DNA from: a virus
Taxonomy: Duplodnaviria; Caudoviricetes
Strand: one strand, 5' to 3'
Length of the DNA stretch: 64,000 nucleotides
Virus record (IMG/VR): IMGVR_UViG_3300044641_005618
Each line of letters starts with the position of its first letter. Position 1 is the stretch's first letter. The notes under the pieces were generated by a model. That model made no database searches. It saw only the letters and a program-made list of their open reading frames with translations, and was not told the origin of the DNA. The translations under genes and the position numbers were made by a program. This document shows positions 8,850 to 57,347 of the stretch, in pieces.

Positions 8850-9035
8850 TTACCTTGTTGCAGTTGAAAGAAAGGGGTGCCCTTCATCAAGCGGTGTGTC
8901 ATCCAAACAGGTAGACACTCCAAAGTGCGACACTCCAAAAAATTCCCCGTCTACCTCCACAGTAGCGTCCTTGTCCAGGTCATCGTTAGAAAAAGTCTGC
9001 AAACTTTCTAAAAGTTCTCGGAAAGTTAGTGTCAC
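8850..9035 (-). CDS. Small acidic hypothetical protein
   Basis: GTGA overlap with upstream ATPase stop. Confidence 0.6.
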   Translation of the reverse strand: MTLTFRELLESLQTFSNDDLDKDATVEVDGEFFGVSHFGVSTCLDDTPLDEGHPFLSTATR

Positions 9036-9601
9036 AGCGAGGGAGCCTCCTTAAAATGTAGCTCACCAAGATAGCTCAAAATCTCTGTGTCCCTGCGTTC
9101 GTCCGGTCCAGATATTGAGATTGGACGGAACCCACTGTACTTGCACAGATAGTCGTAGACAAACTCGTCAACTCTTTTGGCTTGGTCTTCGGTTTCGTAA
9201 CGTCCGCGAGGGTCGAAGGGCTTGATGCGATTTAGGAAGAAATTCTTGTACGTTACACCCCTTTCCTCTGCGTGAGCCATGAAGGATTGAGCGGCGGAAC
9301 TTACGTACGTGTCTTTGCCTTGAGACCGGTAGTCTTGGTAGATTCCTGCCAGAAGTATAGGGCTGTCGGTAACAATGTAGTCAACTTTGCCGTACAGCAT
9401 GCTCTCGTAGGCGCTTTGCTTACCGAGGAGGTAGAGTTGGTCCCACTCACGCACTTTGCGGTCGTTCCACGCCCAGTACTTCACATACTCTCTTACAAGT
9501 TCAACGTGAATGCCGGCCAGCTTCATTCTGGCGAAGAGGAGCGCAGCTGTGGTTGATTTTCCGCAACCGGACCCGCCGAAGAGGTTAATTACTGTTGTCA
9601 T
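9032..9601 (-). CDS. P-loop ATPase/kinase (AAA_28/NadR-kinase-like)
   Basis: Walker A GGSGCGKST; ELVREYVK; IVTDSPILL. Confidence 0.8.
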   Translation of the reverse strand: MTTVINLFGGSGCGKSTTAALLFARMKLAGIHVELVREYVKYWAWNDRKVREWDQLYLLGKQSAYESMLYGKVDYIVTDSPILLAGIYQDYRSQGKDTYVSSAAQSFMAHAEERGVTYKNFFLNRIKPFDPRGRYETEDQAKRVDEFVYDYLCKYSGFRPISISGPDERRDTEILSYLGELHFKEAPSL

Positions 9602-9730: not shown

Positions 9731-10366
9731 CTAAACGTCCAGGTCTAGGAAGGACAGCTCACCAAGTCCAACAAACTCTACCCCTTTGTACACCGTATGG
9801 TGATTTAGATGCCAGTGGCCATGAATCCATAGTTCCGGTTTGTGGGTCTCGAGCATGTTGTCGAAACACCTTCGTGTTACCGAAGGGATGTCAAATTTTT
9901 GCTTTCCTATTTTGTGACACACTAACGAAATTACGGAGTCAGGACACTCATGTGTGACAACGATCTTGGGTTTCACAAGCTCATACGCGTCCATAATGTT
10001 GGAAAGCTCTCCGTAAGAAAGCTCTTCGTCAGGCCACCAGTCGTAGCGCTCGGTACGTCGGTCCCTGTCGATGGAGTAAGCTCCACCCACACAAAAAATG
10101 TCGCCGCGACCGAACACCGACCCCCCGTCTTTCACCCAGTAGGGGTGTCTTTTGCAGGCACCGGGACTGTCGTGGTTTCCCCGTATGAAAAAGTGCTCAC
10201 CCTTTGACATCGCGTCGTAGGGTGGGCTGCTGTATGGCTTTTCGGTCTTCGGGTCAATGAAACCCACACCGAAGTCTCCCACTTGGACTGAGCGGTTGCA
10301 TTCTCTGATTAGCTTCTCATACTTTGACCATTTGCCATGTACATCACCAATAAATCTGATTTTCAC
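9731..10366 (-). CDS. Calcineurin-like metallophosphoesterase
   Basis: GDVHG, GDFG, GNHD, THECP, HGHWH. Confidence 0.9.
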   Translation of the reverse strand: MKIRFIGDVHGKWSKYEKLIRECNRSVQVGDFGVGFIDPKTEKPYSSPPYDAMSKGEHFFIRGNHDSPGACKRHPYWVKDGGSVFGRGDIFCVGGAYSIDRDRRTERYDWWPDEELSYGELSNIMDAYELVKPKIVVTHECPDSVISLVCHKIGKQKFDIPSVTRRCFDNMLETHKPELWIHGHWHLNHHTVYKGVEFVGLGELSFLDLDV

Positions 10367-10596
10367 AGTGTTCCCCTAAACAAGTCAATCACTCTCTGTA
10401 TCGCCTCAGATATTTCACCGGAGTCGTTATCAATAACTCTCTGGTCAACCATCCAAGAAATGAGATTGAAGATGTCTTTTTCAGTCGGTCCCTTTACCTG
10501 CGACTCTTTCAACGCTGCAAGTGCGAGGCATGTTGTAGCGGACTCGTAGGGTATCTCGTCGAGTAGGGCAGCGCAAATGGCGCGAAAGTTTTTCAT
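10363..10596 (-). CDS. Small hypothetical protein, leaderless start
   Basis: ATG exactly 6 nt after TATAGT. Confidence 0.65.
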   Translation of the reverse strand: MKNFRAICAALLDEIPYESATTCLALAALKESQVKGPTEKDIFNLISWMVDQRVIDNDSGEISEAIQRVIDLFRGTL

Positions 10597-10602
10597 ACAC
10601 TT

Positions 10603-10665
10603 ACTATAGCGTTTTTGTCGCTATAAGGCAAGGGCCTAAACCGCCCCGCTCAGGGCGGTTATCCG
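10603..10665 (-). promoter_or_regulatory. Repeated promoter element, leaderless
   Basis: CGGATAACC-N13-CGGTTTAGG..TTGCCT-N17-TATAGT-N6-ATG. Confidence 0.8.
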
Positions 10666-10897
10666 CTTTTTCTAGCTGTAGGCCTGCCGCTACCATTCGC
10701 AGTGAGTGCTCGGCGTCAGCTACGGCTTGTTCCTCAGGCGACGGCAGCTTTCGTTCCAGCAACTCGTCACCCCACTGCCATTTAGCCGCTTGTTCTTGGG
10801 TGGGTTCTCTTTGGTTAGTCATTATAACATGTGAACAATAAGGGTTCTTAAAGTGACTAAGGAAGTGCCTGTACGACACTTCTTTTGCACTTTATTT

Positions 10898-12004
10898 CTA
10901 CAGAACGTTTAAGTCAGGATACAGGCTCAAAAGTTCATCCTTTGACAGAACATCAAACTCGTCTTCGGGTTGCCAAATAACTTCCAGTGCCATCAGATCC
11001 TCAGGAGAGACTGAACCAAGGGTTACAAGATTGGCGTTTAAGCTCTCGTGCGAGTCCGACAGTTTGAGATCCAGCTTTCGGTCCGATGCCACAAGCACGC
11101 TCACAAGGATATATTCGTTCTCCTTGGCGTCCCTTTGGGGTTTGACCTTACGCTCTGTGACGCTCCCGCCCACATTCGTGAGAACTTCCTCTGATGCCTT
11201 CGAGCGTTCTTCCATGGAAAGTTGGTCGAATCGGCTTTCTGCCTCTCCTGACGCCACCTGCTCAGTACTGCTCCACGCGTAAACAACTTTGTCGGGGTGG
11301 CGAAGAAGGGCGAGGGAAGTTTCTTGCAGGATCTTCGAGAGACCCTCAGCACTGTCCGTGTCCCCTCGCCGAGCGAGTCGTATTAGGTCTGTTTGTAGGT
11401 CCTTTGCAGAGGCGAGCAAGGCCACTCGCTGCCTCACCACGGTCGTCTTTCTAAGCTTGTCCCGCTGAGTACTCACCCATGGGCTCACAAAGTCGTCCCA
11501 ACCCCCAGCCAGCAGAAAGATAGCCAAGCCTCCTACGCCTAACACGGCAAGGATCCCAAAAAAGAATGCGGGACTCACAGGTGTTTGAGGCACTGGTGCC
11601 ACTTGCGAAGAGTAAAGTGGCGGAGCAACCGGATAGACGTTCGGTGTCATGTCCGGCATCACAATGATGTTCGTTCTGTTGTTTCCGGGGTTGCTGTAGG
11701 GTAGTGTTGTTCGGTACGGTTTCGAAGGGCTGCCACCGTAGTAGCTTGGACTTCTATTCAGCCCCGGTGCAGGGGTGCTTCTTAGCACCGGTGAGGGAGA
11801 GGTCCTATAGCTTGGAGAGCTGGAGCGACTACTCCCGAAACTTGGGGACCGAGATGGTCGGCTATAGCTAGACGAACTGCGAAAGCTCCGTCCGCTTATT
11901 CGTCCGGCTGACGCTGCGAGTGCCGGTGTTGCCGAGAGCAGGGTTGCTAAGGCGAAAGTCAAAGCCAAGACAGTTGCTGCGGTTGCTGCGGTTTTTGTTT
12001 TCAT
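10898..12004 (-). CDS. DUF1517 family membrane protein (FLAP1/FlpA homologue)
   Basis: Signal peptide ending PALA, ASAGRISGRSF Ser/Arg-rich segment, one TM helix, LQETSLALLRHP, EAESRFDQLSMEERSK, EYILVSVLVA, LEVIWQPE, LLSLYPDL C-terminus. Confidence 0.88.
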   Translation of the reverse strand: MKTKTAATAATVLALTFALATLLSATPALAASAGRISGRSFRSSSSYSRPSRSPSFGSSRSSSPSYRTSPSPVLRSTPAPGLNRSPSYYGGSPSKPYRTTLPYSNPGNNRTNIIVMPDMTPNVYPVAPPLYSSQVAPVPQTPVSPAFFFGILAVLGVGGLAIFLLAGGWDDFVSPWVSTQRDKLRKTTVVRQRVALLASAKDLQTDLIRLARRGDTDSAEGLSKILQETSLALLRHPDKVVYAWSSTEQVASGEAESRFDQLSMEERSKASEEVLTNVGGSVTERKVKPQRDAKENEYILVSVLVASDRKLDLKLSDSHESLNANLVTLGSVSPEDLMALEVIWQPEDEFDVLSKDELLSLYPDLNVL

Positions 12005-12080: not shown

Positions 12081-12857
12081 TCATACAGCGTCCCACTCAT
12101 TCGCCTTGAATTTCGGTCGCCACCAGTTTCGAACTTTACCGGCTTTGTCGATAGACAAGATAATGTAGTCGCCGAACCCCGCGTCACCTTTGCACAAATA
12201 CTCGTCAGGAACGTAATCCCCACGGTACTTAAATAAGCGGTGCTCCGAGTCTCTGAGCCAGTACTCACCTTGGTCGCACACTTTGTAGTAAATTTCGGCT
12301 GTGACTCCGTAGGGCCACTCCATCACCTGACCGTCTTTCAGGCGAATGGTTGGAGTCCAGCATTTCCCGGTTCGGAGAGGGATGAGTGTCCCCTCTTTGT
12401 CAATCGTCTCATTGACTGTCGCGTCTTCCCAGTACCTCACTTCTGCCGATATCTCAAGAAACTCTAGTTTTGGAGTCTTAGTGCCGGAGAGGCTAACCGT
12501 GCTCTTAGCACTCGACATGTCCGGGAACCAAGTGTCTTTTCGGCTAGAGTATACGGCGGTGTCGTCTTCGGTGAAAGACCTCTTTCGGCCAAACTTGTAG
12601 ACCTCCACTTGGTCCTTCGTAAAGACATAGCAAAAGTCGGTAGATGCGCTGGTTTCCCATTTCCAGGGCCAACCCTCTTCAGGAGAGTGAAAGTCGTCCC
12701 GTTTGGCTATGCGCCTGATTCCGGACCGGAACTCGTGCGCGGAGGTGACGAACGTGATTTCCGGACAAATAGTTTCAAGAACACCACCGTCGGAGGAAAT
12801 AGACCCGAGCCACTCCACGGACTTTGGACTTCTAACGTAAAAGTCTGCCGGTTGCAT
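12081..12857 (-). CDS. Hypothetical protein
   Basis: 258-aa ORF directly downstream of a promoter element. Confidence 0.7.
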   Translation of the reverse strand: MQPADFYVRSPKSVEWLGSISSDGGVLETICPEITFVTSAHEFRSGIRRIAKRDDFHSPEEGWPWKWETSASTDFCYVFTKDQVEVYKFGRKRSFTEDDTAVYSSRKDTWFPDMSSAKSTVSLSGTKTPKLEFLEISAEVRYWEDATVNETIDKEGTLIPLRTGKCWTPTIRLKDGQVMEWPYGVTAEIYYKVCDQGEYWLRDSEHRLFKYRGDYVPDEYLCKGDAGFGDYIILSIDKAGKVRNWWRPKFKANEWDAV

Positions 12858-12893
12858 AATGAAAGTTGAGTCTGCGCGAGTATGTATAAGGTA

Positions 12894-12956
12894 ACTATAC
12901 CGCTTTCCTTGCGGAAAGGCAAGGCGGTAAACCGCCCCAGAGCAGCCGGTTAACCG
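12894..12956 (-). promoter_or_regulatory. Repeated promoter element
   Basis: CGGTTAACC-N13-CGGTTTACC..TTGCCT-N17-TATAGT; spacer CTTTCC-GCAA-GGAAAG. Confidence 0.8.
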
Positions 12957-24901: not shown

Positions 24902-25420
24902 TTAGAGAGAATCCCCGGAAAGTGGAGGCAGCGGTAAGGGTACAGCACCGGGAATGGCCTTGGGCACCCCGATCTTGCGCTCTTTCGGCGGTCCCACTTG
25001 CGCGTCTGCGGACAGGCCCCCGTAAGCCGGTGCTTCCAAACCTGTTGGACTGAAAGTTGGTCCAGGTGAGGGAGTGTTGGAAAGCTCTGTGAACTCAGGG
25101 GGAAGGCTCGGGGGAGCTGAGCCAGGGGGCGAGAGACTAACCACAAGGTGGTTGAGACAGTCTGTGTAGGGGGGCATTGCACCCGTTTCTACTATCTTCT
25201 GGGAGAGGCTCGTTCGCTGAGTGTGAACCCACTCAGATAAAATCTGCGAAATTTTGTCGGCCCAGAATTCTGCGTTCTCTTCGTCGTTGCCTTCCTGGAG
25301 AAATGCACCTTGAATTTGGCTCCAAAGGGAATTTGACTTTCGTTGGGCCCGTTCGAGCTCAGCGGTTAGGAACGAAATTTGTTCCTTAAGCTTTTCAATT
25401 AGGTCTTGGGAGTTTGACAT
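24902..25420 (-). CDS. Hypothetical protein, coiled-coil N-terminus and Pro-rich C-terminus
   Basis: 172-aa ORF overlapping the kinase stop. Confidence 0.6.
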   Translation of the reverse strand: MSNSQDLIEKLKEQISFLTAELERAQRKSNSLWSQIQGAFLQEGNDEENAEFWADKISQILSEWVHTQRTSLSQKIVETGAMPPYTDCLNHLVVSLSPPGSAPPSLPPEFTELSNTPSPGPTFSPTGLEAPAYGGLSADAQVGPPKERKIGVPKAIPGAVPLPLPPLSGDSL

Positions 25421-25917
25421 TGCTTAGTTTCGTCGTTGCGGAATATGGTGTGCGGATACTTTTGAGCCAGGTTGGTCATTCTTGTTTGCATACCCTTCAT
25501 CCAAGTTTCGTTCTGGGTATTGTTCCGGGCTGCTCGTCTCTTCTCAAGCTCTTCGTCGCTAACCTGGACAAGAACAAGCGTCATGTTCCCTGTGGCGAAC
25601 ATTGCATCTAAGGTGGGGTTATTAGAGAAGCGTTCACCTTCAGAAAGAATATCCCATTCCTTGTATTTTTCTTCATTGTCCAGCAACCATTGGCGGAACT
25701 TTGGACCAACCCCTTTTGAAAGTTTGTCCGATCCTGCAAAAGTGCTATCGTCGTATACACCCAGCACGATAGTTTTTTGCTTCTCAAATTTGTGATATCT
25801 AACGAGTCCTTCTTGCACGTTCTCCCCCCGCTCATTGGCTTCAAGGGCGTTAAGTTTGTTACGCATTAGCGTGGTTTTACCACAGCCAGGGACTCCGAAG
25901 TAATGTGTCAGTTTCAT
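25399..25917 (-). CDS. P-loop nucleotide kinase, candidate 5-hmdU DNA kinase
   Basis: Walker A GVPGCGKTT; FAGSDKLS; EGERFSN; adjacent to the transferase-like gene. Confidence 0.7.
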   Translation of the reverse strand: MKLTHYFGVPGCGKTTLMRNKLNALEANERGENVQEGLVRYHKFEKQKTIVLGVYDDSTFAGSDKLSKGVGPKFRQWLLDNEEKYKEWDILSEGERFSNNPTLDAMFATGNMTLVLVQVSDEELEKRRAARNNTQNETWMKGMQTRMTNLAQKYPHTIFRNDETKQCQTPKT

Positions 25918-25939
25918 GCTGTTTTGCAGGTGTATCTTC

Positions 25940-25968
25940 ATTATAGTGTGAGGTGGCGGTCCAGTAAA
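25940..25968 (-). promoter_or_regulatory. Sigma70-like promoter without tandem box
   Basis: TTTACT-N17-TATAAT upstream of the kinase. Confidence 0.55.
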
Positions 25969-25984
25969 CAGTGTGCCCTGACTC

Positions 25985-27049
25985 TTAGAGTTTGATTAGA
26001 TTATCATTCTGCCAAGTGTAGTGAAAACTTCCATTTTCAACGAAACGTTTCATCTTTTCCTTGTCAATCGAATCAGCGGAGCTTAAACGATTGTTGGAAC
26101 ACTCCGCTCTACACTGATGCAAAACTTGCCATTCTATACCATACCAACCATCACCTTCCGCTTTGTGAATTTGCTCAGCAACACGGTCATTGTAGTAGTT
26201 TATGTAACGACCATTGGAAGTCCGAAAAACTTTTTTGTACGAACACAATACTGTCTCAAGGGAAAAGTTGTCGAAGTCTTTAGTAAACTCTGGCCATCGG
26301 GATTGGGCTTCCGAACTAAGATCAGAGCCGAATCCCCCCAACCACTCGTATTCTTGTGCTGTTAACCGCTGGTTAACCCAATCGTCCTTACCCGCCGCCA
26401 GACATAAGCCGTTGCGGTGACTTTTGGAGCCGGAGTAATCATCCAGGAACAGGGATGGACACTCTATAGGTAAGTCACAAGTTGCTTTGAGAGTCTGAAG
26501 ATAGAAGAAGGTGGTGTAACGGCCAAACTTGAAAAAGTTTTTAATGACGATATTCCAGAGCGTCCAAAAATTATCTTCAAGGGAACCCTGGCACAATCGG
26601 GTAAACTTGTCTTGTTGGGAAGAACTACCAATAAATTGGTGGTAACTTGCATACATGGTAGCAAGGTGCCCCCTCGACCATTTGCAATCTCGTTCGTGGC
26701 GTATACGACTGTAATTCTCAGCTACAAATGAGTCAAATCGTTCTACACTCGCAAGCTCTTCGTCTGGAAACTCTTGCTTAAATGCCCAAGATGTGGGTAA
26801 GTAATATGTATGAAAGAGCCAAGCGAACCACAGCTTTTCTTCAATACTATGCTCAAACCTTTCGTTTAAGTATCGCATCATCCACATGGATGGGTCAATG
26901 TCCAGAGCTGCAGCTGAAGACACCCACCATTGCAAAAAACCCTCTCTTCTATTCTCCAATAATCTGTAGTCAACATGACTAATATTTTGTTTATATGCAC
27001 AGGCAACATCAACAGGTCCGCTGCTGCGCACGTTATTCTTGACAGTCAT
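25985..27049 (-). CDS. Amino acid:DNA transferase-like protein (aGPT-Pplase2, HhH-glycosylase fold)
   Basis: DYR..RREGF, KLWFAWLF, FGRYTTFFYLQTL, SHRNGL, ETVLCSYKK. Confidence 0.75.
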   Translation of the reverse strand: MTVKNNVRSSGPVDVACAYKQNISHVDYRLLENRREGFLQWWVSSAAALDIDPSMWMMRYLNERFEHSIEEKLWFAWLFHTYYLPTSWAFKQEFPDEELASVERFDSFVAENYSRIRHERDCKWSRGHLATMYASYHQFIGSSSQQDKFTRLCQGSLEDNFWTLWNIVIKNFFKFGRYTTFFYLQTLKATCDLPIECPSLFLDDYSGSKSHRNGLCLAAGKDDWVNQRLTAQEYEWLGGFGSDLSSEAQSRWPEFTKDFDNFSLETVLCSYKKVFRTSNGRYINYYNDRVAEQIHKAEGDGWYGIEWQVLHQCRAECSNNRLSSADSIDKEKMKRFVENGSFHYTWQNDNLIKL

Positions 27050-27388
27050 AATACGGGTTGTTACGAGGTGAACTCATGTGGTACTTCTAAAACGGCGGCT
27101 AAATTTCCTCGAATGGCCCCTAAAATGAGAAGAATAATGTCAGAAATGGGTTATAGCGGAGAGGAACATTTAGCTAAACCTTATGATCAAACCCTCCTGG
27201 ACTGGTCGGATCTCATAGTTTGTATGAGTAAAGTACACATTACTCGCATTAATGAGAACTTCAGTGTTGACACCGACAAGATAGCTAACTGGGAAGTTAT
27301 AGACCCATTTTTTCACAAGGGCGAGGAGGTACATCGAAGTGTGGCCCACCAGATTAAAGAGCTAGTTTTCCGCCACTTTCTAGACTGA
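26975..27388 (+). CDS. Low-molecular-weight protein tyrosine phosphatase/ArsC family
   Basis: P-loop CTGNINRS, SDLIVCM, WEVIDPF. Confidence 0.85.
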   Translation: MTNILFICTGNINRSAAAHVILDSHNTGCYEVNSCGTSKTAAKFPRMAPKMRRIMSEMGYSGEEHLAKPYDQTLLDWSDLIVCMSKVHITRINENFSVDTDKIANWEVIDPFFHKGEEVHRSVAHQIKELVFRHFLD

Positions 27389-28304
27389 CAAAGTTTGACA
27401 TCTCAGCAGCAGGTTGTTTATAAATGTCAAAGTGCTCTGACATTCTGTTCAGACGCTGACCCACCACGGTTCTAGTGTTTTTCTCCAGATCTGTCCATCT
27501 AAAGATAGTATCGATATTATGGTCGTAGGGTGCGAACTGTGGAAACTTCCAGTTTCTCGAGGAGTAGATCTGGTCGGGGGTTTCACCTGTAAACAACGCT
27601 GCTTCCACAAACCTATGAATCCAACTAAAACAGCATTCGATCTCACTGCTATCTAGCGAAGGCGTGAAATGTCTAAACTCAATGGTGTTTGTTTCCCTAA
27701 GCTGAGACAAATTGATACCACCCCGGATAGCTAGTGCCCAAAGAGGCTTACCGGTCTTATCTTTGGGTGCATGACCATTTATGAACTCTTCCGGAGTTTC
27801 AGCCCCCATGCAAGCAGCTATTTGTTTCGGTTTTAGCTTATTTTGGTGGCTTACCAATCGTCTTTTGTATCTTTGTATGGCCCCCTTATACGAGGCTTCG
27901 GTTTGAAACTGGTGTCGTTCGGGGATGTCTAACGGTTCAACCAGCTCGTATACACGGTTCTGGTGACCCAGAACATACTGCATCAGACGCTTCAGAGCAG
28001 TCAGATCTTCACGCAATCCTGGCACCTGTATATGCAGATGTAGGTTGGTCCGGTGGTTGATATGTATGCGCTCTAGAGACTTAACCAAACTGTTCCATAT
28101 ATCTAGCTGCCCCTCTATACTATCCGTAGGGTCTGTGTTTATTTCCCCCCCGAGGGTATACAACTTTGCCTTTTCATCATTAGCCACACCAGTAGAGTTG
28201 GCTATACTATGATCTTTAAAGTTCCAGTTAGCGCCTCTAGGTAGTGTAACCAATCTGTCAACATCACCCAGTTCATACTCTGCACCATAAGTAGCTTCAA
28301 TCAT
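27354..28304 (-). CDS. Putative amidoligase (COOH-NH2 ligase, Amidoligase_2-like), copy 1
   Basis: GAEYE, GGEINT, NLHLHI, INL, TIEFRHF. Confidence 0.8.
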   Translation of the reverse strand: MIEATYGAEYELGDVDRLVTLPRGANWNFKDHSIANSTGVANDEKAKLYTLGGEINTDPTDSIEGQLDIWNSLVKSLERIHINHRTNLHLHIQVPGLREDLTALKRLMQYVLGHQNRVYELVEPLDIPERHQFQTEASYKGAIQRYKRRLVSHQNKLKPKQIAACMGAETPEEFINGHAPKDKTGKPLWALAIRGGINLSQLRETNTIEFRHFTPSLDSSEIECCFSWIHRFVEAALFTGETPDQIYSSRNWKFPQFAPYDHNIDTIFRWTDLEKNTRTVVGQRLNRMSEHFDIYKQPAAEMSNFVSLESGGKLAL

Positions 28305-29173
28305 ATAACCTCGTGGTATTGTCGTTGTTTCTTTCCTCTTTTCTTATCCCACTTAGTGGCAGCCCAACCTTTCCAGGTATCGGCATCAAACTCGAAAGGT
28401 GGGAATTGAAAATCGTTGCTGTTCAAAATTTCTTTCACCGTTGGTCCATCATTCAGTGCAGCGGATATAAACAGAGTAGCAAATCTAAAGCAGCTTTCTA
28501 ACTGTTTACGGTCTAAACTGTTTCTAAAACACCGGAACTCAATAGTCTTTGTATGCTTCAGGCAGTAAGTGTTAATGGCGTATCTGAATGGTCGACCTTG
28601 TGAGACGCCATCTTTGCCGCTACCGTGCAACTTTATAAAGTGATCAAAGTTAGTAGAGAGATTGACTATATTGTCACACATCCACGAAGGCATTAAACGA
28701 CCTCCGTCGTACTTCATGTAAGACTTTACATTTTTCAGACCTTTCATGTTATCCGTTTCTGTGAACGGGTAAACAGCATCCACAACATCTTTTTGATTAT
28801 CTTTAACGTAAGCAACAAGTTTTTTCAGTGATACTAAATCCCCTGTTAAACCAGGTACATGAACGTGAACATGAGCATGGGTCCGACAACAAATTGTAGG
28901 CTCATGGTTGTTGTTAGCGAACAGGTCACGTATATCAAAAATCCTATCAACTTGCTCTCGCCATGTACTTGTCGGTTTGGTATTAATTTCCCCACCCACG
29001 GGAGGGTCAAGACCCAACGGGTCGGCGGCAACATACTTGTAAGGATCTCGAAGATTAACAATGTCCCGTTCAGAGTATTCCCAGCTCCCTAAATGGGAGG
29101 GAATGTCGAAAGATCTGGGGACATCGCCCCATTCTATTTCAAAGCCATAAGTCCAGGTTGCTGGATCAAACAC
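28301..29173 (-). CDS. Putative amidoligase, copy 2
   Basis: GFEIE, GGEINT, HAHVHV, YAIN, TIEFRCF. Confidence 0.8.
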   Translation of the reverse strand: MFDPATWTYGFEIEWGDVPRSFDIPSHLGSWEYSERDIVNLRDPYKYVAADPLGLDPPVGGEINTKPTSTWREQVDRIFDIRDLFANNNHEPTICCRTHAHVHVHVPGLTGDLVSLKKLVAYVKDNQKDVVDAVYPFTETDNMKGLKNVKSYMKYDGGRLMPSWMCDNIVNLSTNFDHFIKLHGSGKDGVSQGRPFRYAINTYCLKHTKTIEFRCFRNSLDRKQLESCFRFATLFISAALNDGPTVKEILNSNDFQFPPFEFDADTWKGWAATKWDKKRGKKQRQYHEVI

Positions 29174-29828
29174 TGATTAAGTCCTCAACTTCAACTAGTT
29201 TAGTTGCAGCCTTACCCTGGTAAAGGAAACCCGGAAGGCAGCGGATAGGGTTCTTCAAACCCGCTCTCAAAGCAATATCTTTCGTTGAGGTTAAAAAGAA
29301 ACCGTTTTTAACTTCGCTTTTCCACAGGGGTCTCTTCCCATTGCGGTAATAACGCATGGAGCCAGTCTCTCTTAGCTCCAAAACAGCCATGGAAGCGTCT
29401 GTAAACTTTTTCAACGGTTGTTCCTTGTTTTCGATAGCACGAAGCACAAGCTCTGAATCGTTGGTGGTTTTTAACTGGTACCCAAACTTTATCCAAGTTT
29501 CAGGGGGCGACTGCTCAATGACACCATTGTGGGCTATGGCTAGAGAGCCGTTCGTTAGCGGTTGATTGTATCTAATATCAGAGGTAGAATAGCGGCAATG
29601 TCCAATCAACGTTAAACAATCGTCTGAGACGCAATCATTCAGATCATAAAGATTGAGAAACTCCTGTGCACAAACTGGCTCAGTGATCGTCTCAAGACCG
29701 TTTTTTCCAATATAAGAAATGCCAGTAGCATGTTTGCCCCTGACCTGCGATTCAAGGGCAATGCGTTGAATTGTTTGAATGTTGTTTTGTGTAACTTCTT
29801 CTAAGTCACATCCAAATAAGGCGCACAT
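29166..29828 (-). CDS. Class II (Ntn) glutamine amidotransferase, stand-alone
   Basis: N-terminal Cys2, RGKHATG, GHCRYST, NQP, HNGVI, DSE, RPLW. Confidence 0.9.
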   Translation of the reverse strand: MCALFGCDLEEVTQNNIQTIQRIALESQVRGKHATGISYIGKNGLETITEPVCAQEFLNLYDLNDCVSDDCLTLIGHCRYSTSDIRYNQPLTNGSLAIAHNGVIEQSPPETWIKFGYQLKTTNDSELVLRAIENKEQPLKKFTDASMAVLELRETGSMRYYRNGKRPLWKSEVKNGFFLTSTKDIALRAGLKNPIRCLPGFLYQGKAATKLVEVEDLISV

Positions 29829-30592
29829 TACACTAAGTTACAGAAAAGAATTTGTCTCCAGCGAGACACCAGCATGTCAGCGTACTGCTGTCGAGTTGGA
29901 GGGTTTGATTGCGGGTCACTATTTTCGTAAAATCCCAGTGACCACGCATCGTTAAGTTCAACTAGGCAGTACCGATTCAGGTCAGGCCTCCAGCCGATGT
30001 CAATCGTGTAAGCACCGGGCGCAATATTTGCCTCTAGCACACCCATAATCTCTTCAACCAGGCCAAAGTCAGGTTCAGGGTTTCTTACGGGCTTGTCGTC
30101 ATACCGCGACCACCCCTGAATTTTACCACCCCCAATGAAGTCGTGAATGTAGAACCGAAATTCCGACTCAAAGGGCACAGCCTGAGAGACCCACACTGAA
30201 GTGTTATCAGAAATTAGTCCAGGTATCTTCAGTTCGAGCTCTCTCTTGATGTCCCCGGTAAACAACTTTATTGCGGTTGGCTTCACAAAGTCTTCCAAGG
30301 TTGCTTCACCGTACACTCCTTGTCGAACGGACCTCATAAGGTACTTTTTCAGTTCTCCATTACACCCGTAGGAAAAGTCCTCAGGTAGCACAATACCTGC
30401 GTGTTCACTATAAGCTTGAACAAATTCCACCGATCCCACAGGAATCAATGTAGCCAGGAAACCTTTAGGGTCTAACTTCGATAGGCCGTTAAACGAGCAA
30501 TATTGGACAGGGTAACAGGAGAAGCTACACGCAACCTTCTCGATTTGTAGTGGTCCTCCGGACTGGAGTAGGAAAGTAGGATTTTTCATCAC
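29828..30592 (-). CDS. ATP-grasp protein (R2K/DUF4343-like)
   Basis: FVKP...KLFTG, EFRFYI, YTIDIG, LVELNDAWSLGFY. Confidence 0.8.
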   Translation of the reverse strand: MMKNPTFLLQSGGPLQIEKVACSFSCYPVQYCSFNGLSKLDPKGFLATLIPVGSVEFVQAYSEHAGIVLPEDFSYGCNGELKKYLMRSVRQGVYGEATLEDFVKPTAIKLFTGDIKRELELKIPGLISDNTSVWVSQAVPFESEFRFYIHDFIGGGKIQGWSRYDDKPVRNPEPDFGLVEEIMGVLEANIAPGAYTIDIGWRPDLNRYCLVELNDAWSLGFYENSDPQSNPPTRQQYADMLVSRWRQILFCNLV

Positions 30593-30773
30593 GGTGGGCA
30601 GTTAGTTAGGTAACAACGACAGTATATTGGCATTAACCCACTGGGTCTCTTCTCTCGACAACTTAAGCCACAGAAGGTCAAGCTCGTCGAGCAAGGCCTC
30701 CTCCGCGTCCTCGTTTCCCTCTCCCCTTAACTTTAGGGACAAGCTAAGTTTTTCGCAGTAATCTTTAACTTCG

Positions 30774-31364
30774 TCAGTCATTAAGATTGGATCGAAGCAT
30801 ATTGCAGAAAATACGACCTTGCTCGATGGCATCATCCACAGCGATGTGAGTGTGCTTGTTTTCGAGTGGAAACCACTCCTTTGGGTAGTTCCGTTTGGTG
30901 GACTCCCGGTATCCTCTTTTGAGCAAGGCCATAGCATAGGTCTTACCGTCAAGCGCCGAGAAGCTAAATGGGGACTGTCCAGTGAACCGAATAAGGTACC
31001 AATACACGAAAAGAAAGTCAAACCCTGCAGGAAAACCCACGAATACGGGCAAGGCTTTCCGACCACCTGAACCTTGGTTACTGTTAGCTTTCACGGTCTG
31101 GTCAACCCAACCCGAGAAGAGCAACATGGCTTGGTCCGGACTCCAGGTATGCTCCCGAGAGGCTCTGTAAGCCTCTGGGTGGGCCTCCCACCACGCTTGA
31201 GTGGTAGGGTCCGCCTGAGCCTCCGGAAGGGTCTCCAGGTTCACCGAGAAGGTGCTTAGGAGTATCCCATCGGGTGAGAACGCAGCCGACCCGAGCGAAA
31301 GCATGCTGTTAGGTCCGGGGATCGGTCCGTCGGTCTCAACGTCTGTGCTGAAGTAGATTTCCAT
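30774..31364 (-). CDS. DEDDh 3'-5' exonuclease (Rv2179c-like), leaderless start
   Basis: [22 protein letters not shown]. Confidence 0.85.
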
Positions 31365-31370
31365 AAAACA

Positions 31371-31432
31371 ATCATAGCATTTATGCGAAGCAGAAACAAG
31401 GGGGAAGCCGAAGGCTTCAGGGCGGTTTACCG
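31371..31432 (-). promoter_or_regulatory. Repeated promoter element, leaderless
   Basis: CGGTAAACC-N13-CGGCTTCCC..TTGTTT-N17-TATGAT-N6-ATG. Confidence 0.8.
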
Positions 31433-32914
31433 ATCTTGTGTAAACACTTGTACGAGTTTCCACCCTTCGCCTGGATCATCCTTGAACAACTTCACCTCTT
31501 TCGTAACGTCGTTCTCGTACGGCGAGGAAAGCTGCCAATTAGAGTTTGAACAGTGTTCCAAGTTTCTTTCTTTTCTAAAGTCTAGCCATTCTTGAGAAGT
31601 CCACATACCTTGCCAAACACCTCTCCAATCTTTATGATCTTTGCCCCGTTCTTTCAGAGACTGAAGTGAAAACTTCATGAACTGTTTTCGGCATTCTTCG
31701 CACTCAAGATCGTCCAATCGGGTCATGTTCTCTCGTGAGTAGAAAACCAGAGAAACCCGCTCAGCATCTTCAGTAAGTTTTGTCATGGGGCTGTTACCAT
31801 GGAGCAAAGTTTGAGTATCCCCTACGATGAAGTCCCCGTCTCTTAAATTGAAGGCCAATCTCACTTCGGGAAACACTAAGTAGTGACCTTCATAAACACC
31901 TTTTGTAAAAGCAGTTAAGACGGCCATACTCCCTTTCAAATTGTTCTTGTCAACGTGGTAGGCAGTCTTGAAATTGAAATTTACGGTTACACTCGTAAAG
32001 GCAGTGCCGAACAAGTTGTAGTTAGGGTCTTTAGCCCTCGAAATCACTTCCTTGACTTTGACCCAAGTCTCCGGAAAATTGTACCTGAAACCTTCGCAGG
32101 CTGTGAAATAAATGTCTTTGTATTTTGAGAACTGCTCATAGTATCTCTGAGTGGTTCCGCTTAAACGACCGTAGGGGAATCTAGCCCCACGGTCAATTGC
32201 CCCAAGGACGTTACTGTAGCAGTGGTTAAAGTTCAACTGGGAACTTATGTAAGTGTTTAGAACTTTTTTAACTTCTTCGACTTTGTTTTCTGAGGGCAGC
32301 CAAACTTCTAGTAACCAAGATTCGAACCAACCCCAAAGCTGTTCTCTTCTCTGGTTTCTCAGACTTTCTAGTTTCGGGTCTTCGGAGTTCAGTGTGCGAA
32401 TTTCCGCCTCTAACGGTTTCATTTTCTCCGCAAGTTCGGGGTAGTCTTTCTTCACGTATTTGATTTTCAGAGTCTTGCTGGTGAGCTCATCCGAACTTTC
32501 TAGGGCTTCTCGCGCTTGAGCGAGCGTTGTGATCAAGCCCACGGAAGCACCAGCGAAAAAGGCAACCTGTCCTTTAGTTAAGCGTGATTCGGGGCGAGTT
32601 GTAAACTCTGTGCCCGCAACGACACCTCTTTGGGTGCCGTAAACTTCTTTTGAAGCTGCTCGGAAAAAGTCCCAAGTCTCCTTCTGTTTGGAAGAACCCT
32701 CGGAAAGAAGTGGGAAAAGAGCTTTCCGGAAGGACAAGACTTTTACACCTGAGACGTAAACATCACAGTCTTCATCGATTACGCGGTCATAGTCTGTCGC
32801 CTTAGGGAATTGTCCAATATATTCACTGCGAGGGCAGTATTCAAGAGCACCCCTATCAATCTGTAAGGGTTCGACCCTTGACTGTAACTCTTTTGATATT
32901 ACCTCTCGGATCAT
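31427..32914 (-). CDS. TET/JBP-family Fe(II)/2-oxoglutarate dioxygenase, paralogue 1
   Basis: [17 protein letters not shown] (HxD), LLHGN (distal His), [12 protein letters not shown]. Confidence 0.85.
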
Positions 32915-33375
32915 TGCCTATTTCCAGGAAGAATCAAGTTAGACGCGGGCTCATCTTCGATGCGAATTGCTTCCTTGGCGGTCAGGTCATTGGTTCCTTC
33001 GATGCGAGTGAACGTTAGTCCGTACCCTTCACTCTCGGCTTGAGATGCAACGGAGTAGAGCCCGAGCGATCGTACAATAAGGTTACTCTCCGACAACTCC
33101 TCTTGTTCAGCAAGTGCTCGAAAAGCCTCAGCGAAGTTTACAGGGAGTTCCACTGTAATGGCGGTTGTTGCTTCACGGGGGTCACTAATCCCTGAGGCAA
33201 CTTGCCGCTCCTCGGCAATGTCTCTTGGGGAGTAGGTTATTCCCGCAGAGTTTGTTCGAGTGCGACCGAACATTTGTTCGTCTGTAAGGGGGGTTGTTGA
33301 TTCACGGGGGTCATTAATCCCCGAGGCAACTTGCCGCTCCGCGTAGCCACCGTTAAGCTGTTTGTTTGTGTCCAT
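32911..33375 (-). CDS. Chimeric protein: internal repeats, DUF6915-derived peptide, C-terminal ribbon-helix-helix
   Basis: RQVASGI(N/S)DPRE twice; EQMFGRTRTNSAGITYSPRDIAE; AITVELP...LSESNLIVRSL. Confidence 0.65.
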   Translation of the reverse strand: MDTNKQLNGGYAERQVASGINDPRESTTPLTDEQMFGRTRTNSAGITYSPRDIAEERQVASGISDPREATTAITVELPVNFAEAFRALAEQEELSESNLIVRSLGLYSVASQAESEGYGLTFTRIEGTNDLTAKEAIRIEDEPASNLILPGNRQ

Positions 33376-33430
33376 AGTTAGTAATCCTGTGTTTTCGTTC
33401 GTTAAATGCCACTTTGGTAGTCTTTAGGAC

Positions 33431-34918
33431 TCAATTCTCGGTGCCCCGATAGTTAGTATTTGAGCAACGTTCTAAGCCGTGTTCGGCTTTATACGTCATC
33501 CATTCCGGTGATTTCCACATTCCGCTCCAAACACCATTCCAGGTCTTGTGACCATTTCCGTATTCCTTGTGGTTGTCTGCCGCGTATCGCATGAAATCTC
33601 GGCGGCAGTCCTCGCACTCCATATCGTCAAGAGCGGTCATGCGCTCTCGTGAATAGAAAACGAACGAAACTCGTTCAGCGTCCGGCGTCTTCGGAATCAT
33701 TGCAGTGTTACCGTGAATCAGTCCCTGATTGTCACCGGCAATAAAGTCCCCATCACGAAGGTCGAAAGCGCAACGAATTTCAGGGAACACAAGGTAATGG
33801 CCGTCATATTCCCCTTGAGTAATTGCAGTAAGAACGGCAATACCACCTTCGCAGTTATTTCCATCATAGTGCATCGCACAGCGGAAGTTCCAGTTTAACG
33901 TAAGGGCAGTGAACACCGTACCGAAGAGGTTATAGTGCGGGTCTTTCACGTTACTGAACCGTTCGTGAAGGAGGTCCCACCGAGGGTTTTCCGGAGTGTT
34001 CAAGGTCTCTTTGAGCGCAGAGCACGCGGTCTGATAAATATCCGTGTGGCTTACGAACCCCTCATAGTCTTTTACAGTTGTTGCGGTCAAACGACCGTAA
34101 GGGTTACGTGCACCCCTATCAAAAGCACCAATCACGTTGGAATAGCACTTGTTTGAACGGTATTGTTTTCCCACATACCTGTCGTCGGCACGTTTCGCCT
34201 CAGAAACCTTATCCGTAGATGCACTCCAAGTCTCAGACAGCCAAGTCGGGAACCACTTCGCAAGTTCTCTACCCTTCGCTTCCTTCAGCTCTACCTTTCT
34301 TTCTTCGCTCAGCGTTTTCTTGCGAAGTTCCTTCTCGATAGATTCTAAAGCTTTCTCAATTTCTGGGAAGTCCTTTTTAACATCATTCACTCGGACAGTG
34401 AGCTTTGACATGTCGGGGGAGAGAGAAGCAATTTTCAGTGCCTCTTCCACGTCAGTGACTTGACCGGCCATCGCCTTCTTGAAGAAGTTTAGAATACCGT
34501 TGGTTACCCTTATCTCGAGTTGGGTAGTTAGTTCTCTACCAGCAACTAGGCCTCGTTGGTCTGAGTACAAGTCTCTTGCTGCCCAGCGGAAGTATTTCCA
34601 AGTTTCCGGGCTACCTTTCGAACCATCGCGCAGCTTCGGAAAAAGTGCCTTACGAAAGGCAACAACTTTCACTCCGCCCACATAAACGTCGCAGTCTTCT
34701 TGAATAAGGTTGTCGTAAGAGGTTTCGTCGGCGAAATAGCCAATGTAGTCTTTCGGGTCACACTCGTATAGCTTGTCGAGGTCGATTCGGCGGGGCTCTT
34801 GGCGAGAGCGTAAATCACAGACAACGGCTTCACTTACAGAACAGTTATCGTTGCATTTTTCATTTCCGGTTGAAGCGGCTTTAGAACTCTTCGTTAAGTT
34901 TTCTGTCACAAATGTCAT
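33431..34918 (-). CDS. TET/JBP-family dioxygenase, paralogue 2
   Basis: FTALTLNWNFRCAMHYD, LIHGN, RVSFVFYSRERM; colinear with paralogue 1. Confidence 0.85.
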   Translation of the reverse strand: MTFVTENLTKSSKAASTGNEKCNDNCSVSEAVVCDLRSRQEPRRIDLDKLYECDPKDYIGYFADETSYDNLIQEDCDVYVGGVKVVAFRKALFPKLRDGSKGSPETWKYFRWAARDLYSDQRGLVAGRELTTQLEIRVTNGILNFFKKAMAGQVTDVEEALKIASLSPDMSKLTVRVNDVKKDFPEIEKALESIEKELRKKTLSEERKVELKEAKGRELAKWFPTWLSETWSASTDKVSEAKRADDRYVGKQYRSNKCYSNVIGAFDRGARNPYGRLTATTVKDYEGFVSHTDIYQTACSALKETLNTPENPRWDLLHERFSNVKDPHYNLFGTVFTALTLNWNFRCAMHYDGNNCEGGIAVLTAITQGEYDGHYLVFPEIRCAFDLRDGDFIAGDNQGLIHGNTAMIPKTPDAERVSFVFYSRERMTALDDMECEDCRRDFMRYAADNHKEYGNGHKTWNGVWSGMWKSPEWMTYKAEHGLERCSNTNYRGTEN

Positions 34919-36030: not shown

Positions 36031-36094
36031 ACTATAGCGTCTTACGATTGAAAAGGCAAGCGGGGAAACCGTCCTCGAAAGGTTTGGTTAACCG
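36031..36094 (-). promoter_or_regulatory. Repeated promoter element, leaderless
   Basis: CGGTTAACC-N14-CGGTTTCCC..TTGCCT-N17-TATAGT-N6-ATG. Confidence 0.8.
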
Positions 36095-52355: not shown

Positions 52356-52418
52356 ACTATAGCGGTTTTACTGAGCGAAGGCAAGGGGGGAAACCGCCCC
52401 CAGGACGAGTGTTAACCG
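52356..52418 (-). promoter_or_regulatory. Repeated promoter element, leaderless
   Basis: CGGTTAACA-N13-CGGTTTCCC..TTGCCT-N17-TATAGT-N6-ATG. Confidence 0.8.
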
Positions 52419-57302: not shown

Positions 57303-57347
57303 ACTATAGCGTTTTTCCGTCTGAAAGGCAAGGGCGGGAAACCGCCC
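57303..57347 (-). promoter_or_regulatory. Repeated promoter element, leaderless
   Basis: GGCGGTTTCCC..TTGCCT-N17-TATAGT-N6-ATG. Confidence 0.8.

Follow-up and report, generated by a model that had tools for sequence, protein, structure and literature searches.

A FLAP1/FlpA homologue encoded by a jumbo cyanophage from lake water

Does a virus of picocyanobacteria carry its own copy of FLAP1/FlpA, a poorly understood thylakoid-membrane protein of photosynthetic organisms, and if so, where did it come from and what might it do during infection? The question arose from an open reading frame at positions 10898 to 12004 on the minus strand of a 64,000-nucleotide stretch of viral DNA (IMG/VR record IMGVR_UViG_3300044641_005618; here, the window). 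A first-pass annotation made from the sequence alone described this frame as a full-length FLAP1/DUF1517 homologue with a signal peptide, a transmembrane (TM) helix, and a conserved C-terminal domain, noted that it is not among the classic cyanophage auxiliary genes (psbA, hli, cpeT), and proposed that it may sustain proton motive force during infection of a cyanobacterial host.

An intact FlpA-type protein on a phage genome

The frame runs from ATG to stop and encodes 368 residues, and every feature that had been described for it is present in the sequence. Pfam DUF1517 (PF07466) matches residues 187 to 367 across profile positions 2 to 183 of 184, with an E value of 1.8e-55 and 188.3 bits against a cutoff of 23.3. 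Residues 1 to 30 (11915 to 12004, minus strand) form a predicted Sec-type signal peptide targeting the lumen or periplasm, with an MKTK n-region and a hydrophobic stretch (about residues 5 to 29) ending in the putative cleavage motif A28-L29-A30; plant FLAP1 is reported to have a cleavable lumen-targeting peptide (PMC13586636). Residues 31 to 43 (11876 to 11914, minus strand) carry the motif A-S-x-G-R-I-x-G-x-S-F-R-S (A-S-G-G-R-I-G-G-x-S-F-R-S in hosts), and A30, A31, G34, R35, I36, and F41 are invariant across 68 phage and picocyanobacterial proteins. Residues 44 to 143 (11576 to 11875, minus strand) are a strongly basic linker rich in S, P, Y, and R (S24 P20 Y8 R8) and modeled as disordered, where hosts have a shorter Gly-rich linker. 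A single TM helix is predicted at residues 144 to 167 (11504 to 11575, minus strand; Kyte-Doolittle 19-residue mean of up to 2.6), followed by the DUF1517 domain at residues 187 to 368 (10901 to 11446, minus strand). This layout matches published descriptions of FLAP1 (PMC9174948 and PMC13586636).

Structural modeling agrees with this architecture but gave no functional lead. The full-length AF2 model is confident for the TM helix (residues 145 to 165), a juxtamembrane helix, and the domain, whereas pLDDT falls below 50 for residues 43 to 137; the N-terminal motif is modeled as a beta-strand with moderate confidence (pLDDT of about 78) and, with a cleaved signal peptide and one TM helix, should lie on the opposite side of the membrane from the domain. 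The domain alone is predicted to adopt an alpha/beta fold with a disordered loop at about residues 272 to 293 (pLDDT 83.8, pTM 0.80), which aligns with the ESM Atlas DUF1517 cluster at a TM score of 0.90 over 183 residues and with an unannotated Myxococcota cluster at 0.76. Neither the full-length nor the domain-only model convincingly matched a solved structure in searches of the PDB by Foldseek (best E values of 0.18 and 0.33, respectively) or by VIA-align against 48,161 chains (best Z scores of 4.8, from the long helix only, and 3.8), and a profile search of PDB sequences recovered only spurious ubiquitin hits, although this does not prove that the fold is new.

We next asked whether the window could be host chromosome, which together with the absence of a DUF1517 match had been named beforehand as grounds for rejecting the annotation; neither condition holds. 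All large ORFs lie on one strand and include a gamma-type DNA polymerase (phrog_22619, E value of 4e-217), topoisomerase II, two RNA ligases, a Ro-like RNA-binding protein, and a base-hypermodification cluster with a P-loop kinase, an amino acid:DNA transferase, a GATase, an ATP-grasp protein, and two TET/JBP oxygenases. Among GenBank phages the polymerase hits only cyanophages, with 57% identity to Synechococcus phage S-CBWM1 and 30 to 34% to S-TIM5-like phages, A-HIS1/2, and Mic1. None of these isolates encodes a DUF1517 protein by tblastn, and the phage described here is about twice the size of S-CBWM1 (277 kb against 139 kb), as judged from the nearest record, a 277,244-bp IMG/VR genome rated 98% complete that shares 25% of the window's 31-mers and carries a 94%-identical copy of the gene. 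This sister genome, the only one in which these genes were checked, also encodes a large terminase and psbA. Searches of it for PxcA/CemA, hli (Chloroa_b-bind), and PspA/Vipp1 found none. An artifact in which a host gene, a prophage-flanking host gene, or a chimeric assembly mimics a phage gene is effectively excluded: although the window could not be checked end to end against its own assembly, the gene lies in the same phage neighborhood in at least 16 independent IMG/VR contigs and in Logan/ENA contigs from other samples, at 39 to 96% identity, the protein is only 44 to 53% identical to any cellular copy, and G+C content is 52.5% in the 2-kb bin at 10001 to 12000, against 44 to 54% across the window.

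Distribution, neighborhood, and origin

The gene is present in at least 26 distinct phage copies (39 to 96% identity). A scan of IMG/VR with the single protein found nine contigs, four of them with homologues at 94 to 95% identity, and a profile scan found 16, all at least 66% identical in the domain and on contigs of up to 279 kb; a search of 5.8 billion proteins added copies down to 39% identity on metagenomic contigs of up to 284 kb. We examined the genomic context of three of the most divergent copies (labeled P0029, P0034, and P0035; 39 to 59% identity), all of which are on phage contigs with the same Metallophos, AAA_28, RNase_T, topoisomerase, and DNA polymerase module. Four short phage homologues of 214 to 234 residues (P0022, P0023, P0034, and P0036) looked like N-terminally truncated forms, but P0034 is a truncated gene call, as the full-length frame is open in its locus (L124); judged from the protein calls alone, P0022, P0023, and P0036 also begin inside the TM segment. 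In contrast, related phages with the same module (DNA polymerase 58 to 78% identical) lack the gene within 10 kb at four loci, and in the rest of the partial records that hold three of these loci, indicating that, at least in the fragments available, it is a lineage-specific accessory gene that is dispensable for the wider group. No match was found in the 50,697 GenBank phage records searched by tblastn, in PHROGs, or in NCBIfam.

A tblastn comparison of 12 phage loci showed that the gene lies beside topoisomerase II, a metallophosphoesterase (9731 to 10366, minus strand; PF00149, E value of 3.7e-15; syntenic in 11 of 12), and an AAA_28/thymidylate-kinase-like P-loop protein (9032 to 9601, minus strand; PF13521 and phrog_2107; syntenic in 12 of 12). 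Immediately upstream is orf258 (12081 to 12857, minus strand), found upstream of DUF1517 at 43 to 96% identity in 8 of the 12 loci; neither it nor the other small neighbors had Pfam, PHROG, or NCBIfam hits, and an Atlas feature search for orf258 recovered only subthreshold viral hypothetical proteins. A consensus scan identified a phage promoter-like motif, TTGCCTT-N15-(G)(C/G)TATAGT, upstream of orf258 and the DUF1517 gene (12894 to 12922, minus strand), the probable start of the transcription unit, and TTGCCT-N16-18-TATAGT has five exact matches in the window, all on the gene strand, against none expected. No copy separates orf258 from the DUF1517 gene, so the two are probably cotranscribed. 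A GC-rich hairpin with a T-run, followed by the next copy of the motif (10603 to 10660, minus strand; motif at 10603 to 10631), probably marks the end of a unit comprising orf258, the DUF1517 gene, and possibly orf91. Contigs from four lake metatranscriptome libraries (three studies) cover parts of the gene at 90 to 100% identity, which is compatible with transcription but does not prove it, because such contigs cannot give the strand or exclude DNA carryover and their coverage gaps are not interpretable.

The best 80 cellular matches in 185,579 species genomes are nearly all from picocyanobacteria (Cyanobium, freshwater and marine Synechococcus, and Prochlorococcus), with 44 to 53% identity over the domain only; a few contigs labeled as other phyla group with these and appear to be misbinned. 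One phage contig comes from IMG metagenome 3300042374, and the same sample yielded a Cyanobium MAG that carries the cellular gene. Other cyanobacteria usually have two or more DUF1517 paralogues, whereas picocyanobacteria have one. Initial maximum-likelihood trees contained three clean groups meeting at one node, with the phage clade supported at 100/99, and could not show which two are sisters; in a tree rooted on a cyanobacterial paralogue, the phage clade (100/100) is sister to picocyanobacteria (97/95; phage plus picocyanobacteria, 99/95) inside the FlpA-type clade (100/100), apart from the second cyanobacterial paralogue. The simplest reading is one capture from the picocyanobacterial lineage, at or before its crown radiation, followed by vertical descent in the phages, although the long phage stem (about 1.1 to 1.4 substitutions per site) means that a position nested inside the picocyanobacteria cannot be excluded. 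Correspondence to the experimentally studied proteins (FLAP1 [At1g54520, also CERP4b] of Arabidopsis, CPLD42 of Chlamydomonas, and FlpA/Slr0404 of Synechocystis) is inferred from the family, the architecture, and the single copy in picocyanobacteria.

The phage copies evolve under purifying selection, with pairwise dN/dS values of 0.11 to 0.26 that hold for both the N-terminal half and the half containing the TM helix and domain. Of 57 alignment columns at least 90% conserved in 72 cellular FlpA-type proteins, 46 (81%) are identical in the window protein, and most of the rest are conservative changes. A few changes are nonetheless fixed or nearly fixed in the phage clade (G195A in all 26 copies, A214G, W240V, and Q193R), and together with the long stem and the replaced linker these suggest that the activity may have changed. 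One rival explanation is therefore that the protein is a hijacker or dominant-negative version that competes with host FlpA or locks it in one state, for example keeping the thylakoid pH gradient or energy dissipation at a phage-favorable setting or titrating a host partner such as Vipp1. The gene also diverges faster than its neighbors (63% against 76 to 88% identity in one phage locus, L006). We consider this unlikely, given the low dN/dS across the whole gene and the retention of most strongly conserved columns and all of the family-invariant residues; moreover, overexpression of FLAP1 in Arabidopsis had no photosynthetic phenotype (PMC13586636), which argues against simple dosage effects.

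Possible roles during infection

FLAP1 is a chloroplast membrane protein with one TM helix and a DUF1517 domain, and Arabidopsis flap1 mutants bleach under fluctuating light and have altered NPQ; FLAP1 and FlpA mutants show altered NPQ and light-induced H+ extrusion (PMC9174948), and no interacting transporter is known (PMC9174948 and PMC8671777). The proton homeostasis role that the first-pass annotation took as established is now contested: a study reporting reduced chlorophyll and less C2S2M2 supercomplex in mutants argues for a PSII-supercomplex/antenna role and questions the proton homeostasis model (PMC13586636), and affinity purifications identify FLAP1/CPLD42/Slr0404 as a conserved VIPP1 interactor (bioRxiv 10.1101/2023.10.10.561251; PMC13051332). 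We examined one genomic prediction of the VIPP1 link in 41 genomes of the picocyanobacterial order: all 28 genomes with DUF1517 have Vipp1, all 12 without Vipp1 (1.6 to 1.8 Mb) lack DUF1517, and the one genome with vipp1 interrupted by a stop codon also lacks it. The pattern is perfect but may reflect only one or two loss events in streamlined, Prochlorococcus-sized genomes and thus general genome reduction. A complex prediction for Cyanobium Vipp1 with the phage DUF1517 domain returned no answer (score of 0.00), which is neither for nor against binding.

Our analyses show a host-derived, full-length, selectively maintained FlpA-type protein, encoded within the replication and nucleotide metabolism module of a freshwater jumbo cyanophage lineage whose sister genome carries psbA; its function, expression, localization, and membrane topology are inferred. 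The reading we favor, at a probability of about 0.6, is that it is a functional auxiliary gene expressed from a phage promoter, with the product inserted through the host Sec pathway into thylakoid and/or plasma membranes such that the N-terminal motif and linker would face the lumen or periplasm and the DUF1517 domain the cytoplasm. There it would supplement or replace host FlpA as host gene expression declines, keeping the thylakoids energized and intact, and light-driven energy conversion running, for the long replication of a roughly 280-kb genome, in parallel with the phage's own psbA. Two versions of the molecular step appear about equally likely, each with about half of this probability: control of proton flux and proton motive force partitioning across thylakoid and cell membranes, or a VIPP1/PSII-linked role in the maintenance of thylakoid membranes and PSII supercomplexes. 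They may even be the same, since VIPP1/PspA proteins seal membranes against proton leak. The interpretation in the first-pass annotation is thus supported in every part that could be examined, with the provisos that proton motive force is only one of two live options and that the family is not strictly limited to oxygenic phototrophs, because PF07466 also hits Thermus and Deinococcus.

Those non-phototroph homologues and the Myxococcota cluster, which show that the fold is not intrinsically photosynthetic, and the uninformative fold speak for another rival explanation, that the DUF1517 scaffold was exapted for a membrane function unrelated to photosynthesis, such as superinfection exclusion, lysis timing, or anchoring of replication or assembly machinery to membranes. 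The location of the gene inside the replication and nucleotide metabolism module, next to small unknown ORFs, also speaks for it. The location among replication genes, rather than next to psbA, and the absence of a PxcA/CemA partner in the sister genome weigh against the favored reading. Exaptation is nevertheless improbable, as the phage clade nests in the FlpA-type orthologue group next to the presumed hosts, retains the predicted targeting peptide and lumenal motif of the thylakoid protein, and was found only in phages whose relatives infect cyanobacteria and which, as in the sister genome, carry psbA. A more speculative and doubtful possibility is that the phage protein recruits host Vipp1/IM30, the thylakoid ESCRT-III/PspA-type membrane repair protein, anchoring it to thylakoids to keep membranes proton-tight and PSII assembled while the cell is dismantled; this would represent viral control of a phage-shock-protein-type membrane stress system and would also reveal the long-sought molecular function of FLAP1.

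Within the limits of the libraries searched, a phage-encoded FLAP1/FlpA has not been reported: full-text searches found no DUF1517 paper on phages and no paper mentioning both FLAP1 and cyanophages, and the only paper containing both "fluctuating light acclimation protein" and "phage" was a VIPP1 review. The gene belongs with the photosynthesis-related auxiliary genes of cyanophages, such as psbA, psbD, hli, PTOX, petE, petF, and cpeT, as a host-derived gene for a thylakoid-associated protein kept under purifying selection, but it would encode a regulatory or maintenance factor of unresolved biochemistry rather than a reaction center, antenna, or electron carrier protein, and it is confined to one lineage of uncultured freshwater jumbo phages.

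Cyanophage auxiliary genes have repeatedly pointed to the rate-limiting steps of photosynthesis in infected cells (psbA, hli, and PTOX), and FLAP1/FlpA is conserved from cyanobacteria to plants while its molecular function remains disputed. The strict co-occurrence of DUF1517 and Vipp1 in picocyanobacteria provides an independent genomic hint for a FLAP1-VIPP1 link that so far rests on pulldowns in plants and algae. That a whole clade of jumbo cyanophages has kept a full-length copy under purifying selection indicates that the protein is worth carrying during infection, provides a set of natural, strongly diverged variants in which the domain and N-terminal motif are conserved and the linker is replaced, showing which parts matter, and widens the catalogue of photosynthesis-related viral genes in lakes.

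Motifs and gene content around the DUF1517 gene

A conserved promoter-like motif, TTGCCTT-N15-(G)(C/G)TATAGT, occurs five times on the gene strand of the window against none expected (10603-10631, 12894-12922, 36031-36059, 52356-52384, and 57303-57331, all on the minus strand), and the two copies that we inspected are preceded by a GGGGCGGTTT-type hairpin. In contigs from RNA libraries the site at 12888-12927 is a junction where several different contigs meet, as expected of a repeated intergenic cassette. Immediately upstream of the DUF1517 gene lies orf258 (12081-12857, minus strand), which is probably cotranscribed with it and is conserved next to it in 8 of 12 related phage loci (43 to 96% identity); searches of Pfam, PHROGs, NCBIfam, and the Atlas recovered no family assignment for this protein. 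The window also encodes a DNA base-hypermodification cluster at 25399-34918 (minus strand), which comprises a P-loop nucleotide kinase, an amino acid:DNA transferase, an amidoligase-like protein, a GATase, an ATP-grasp R2K protein, and two TET/JBP oxygenases.

We also identified related phages that have the same Metallophos/AAA_28/topoisomerase/polymerase module (IMG/VR contigs L201, L202, L203, and L217; polymerase 58 to 78% identical where it is present) but no DUF1517 gene at this locus, nor, for L201, L202, and L217, in the rest of their partial records. The gene is accessory within the wider group.

N-terminal motif and linker

The invariant N-terminal motif of the protein (residues 31 to 43; window positions 11876-11914) is modeled as a beta-strand with a pLDDT of about 78, but by the predicted topology it should be on the other side of the membrane from the DUF1517 domain; either the topology or the model is wrong, or the strand pairs with something else. 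The linker of some phage copies is a tandem array of SSSPSYSR units, as in P0003, a phage homolog on a 281-kb contig (residues about 37 to 80), where host proteins have G/Y/R-rich repeats. The low-complexity tether seems free to be rebuilt as long as it stays small-residue, Tyr- and Arg-rich.

DUF1517 in cellular genomes

DUF1517 and Vipp1 (PspA_IM30) are present or absent together in 41 of 41 genomes of the picocyanobacterial order (genomes G002, G106, G128, and G154 to G191 of our set). Twelve small genomes (1.6 to 1.8 Mb) lack both, while one (G161) has a vipp1 interrupted by a TAG codon and no DUF1517. Contigs of MAGs labeled Chitinophaga, Klebsiella, Bradyrhizobium, and Salipiger (contigs L020, L040, L065, L072, and L090) carry picocyanobacterial-type DUF1517 genes that group inside the picocyanobacterial clade, but these are probably misbinned or mislabeled contigs. 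In the control genomes, PF07466 scores above its cutoff in Thermus thermophilus and Deinococcus radiodurans, and an unannotated Myxococcota protein cluster in the ESM Atlas has the same predicted fold (TM 0.76). DUF1517 is therefore not confined to oxygenic phototrophs, as the literature states for FLAP1.
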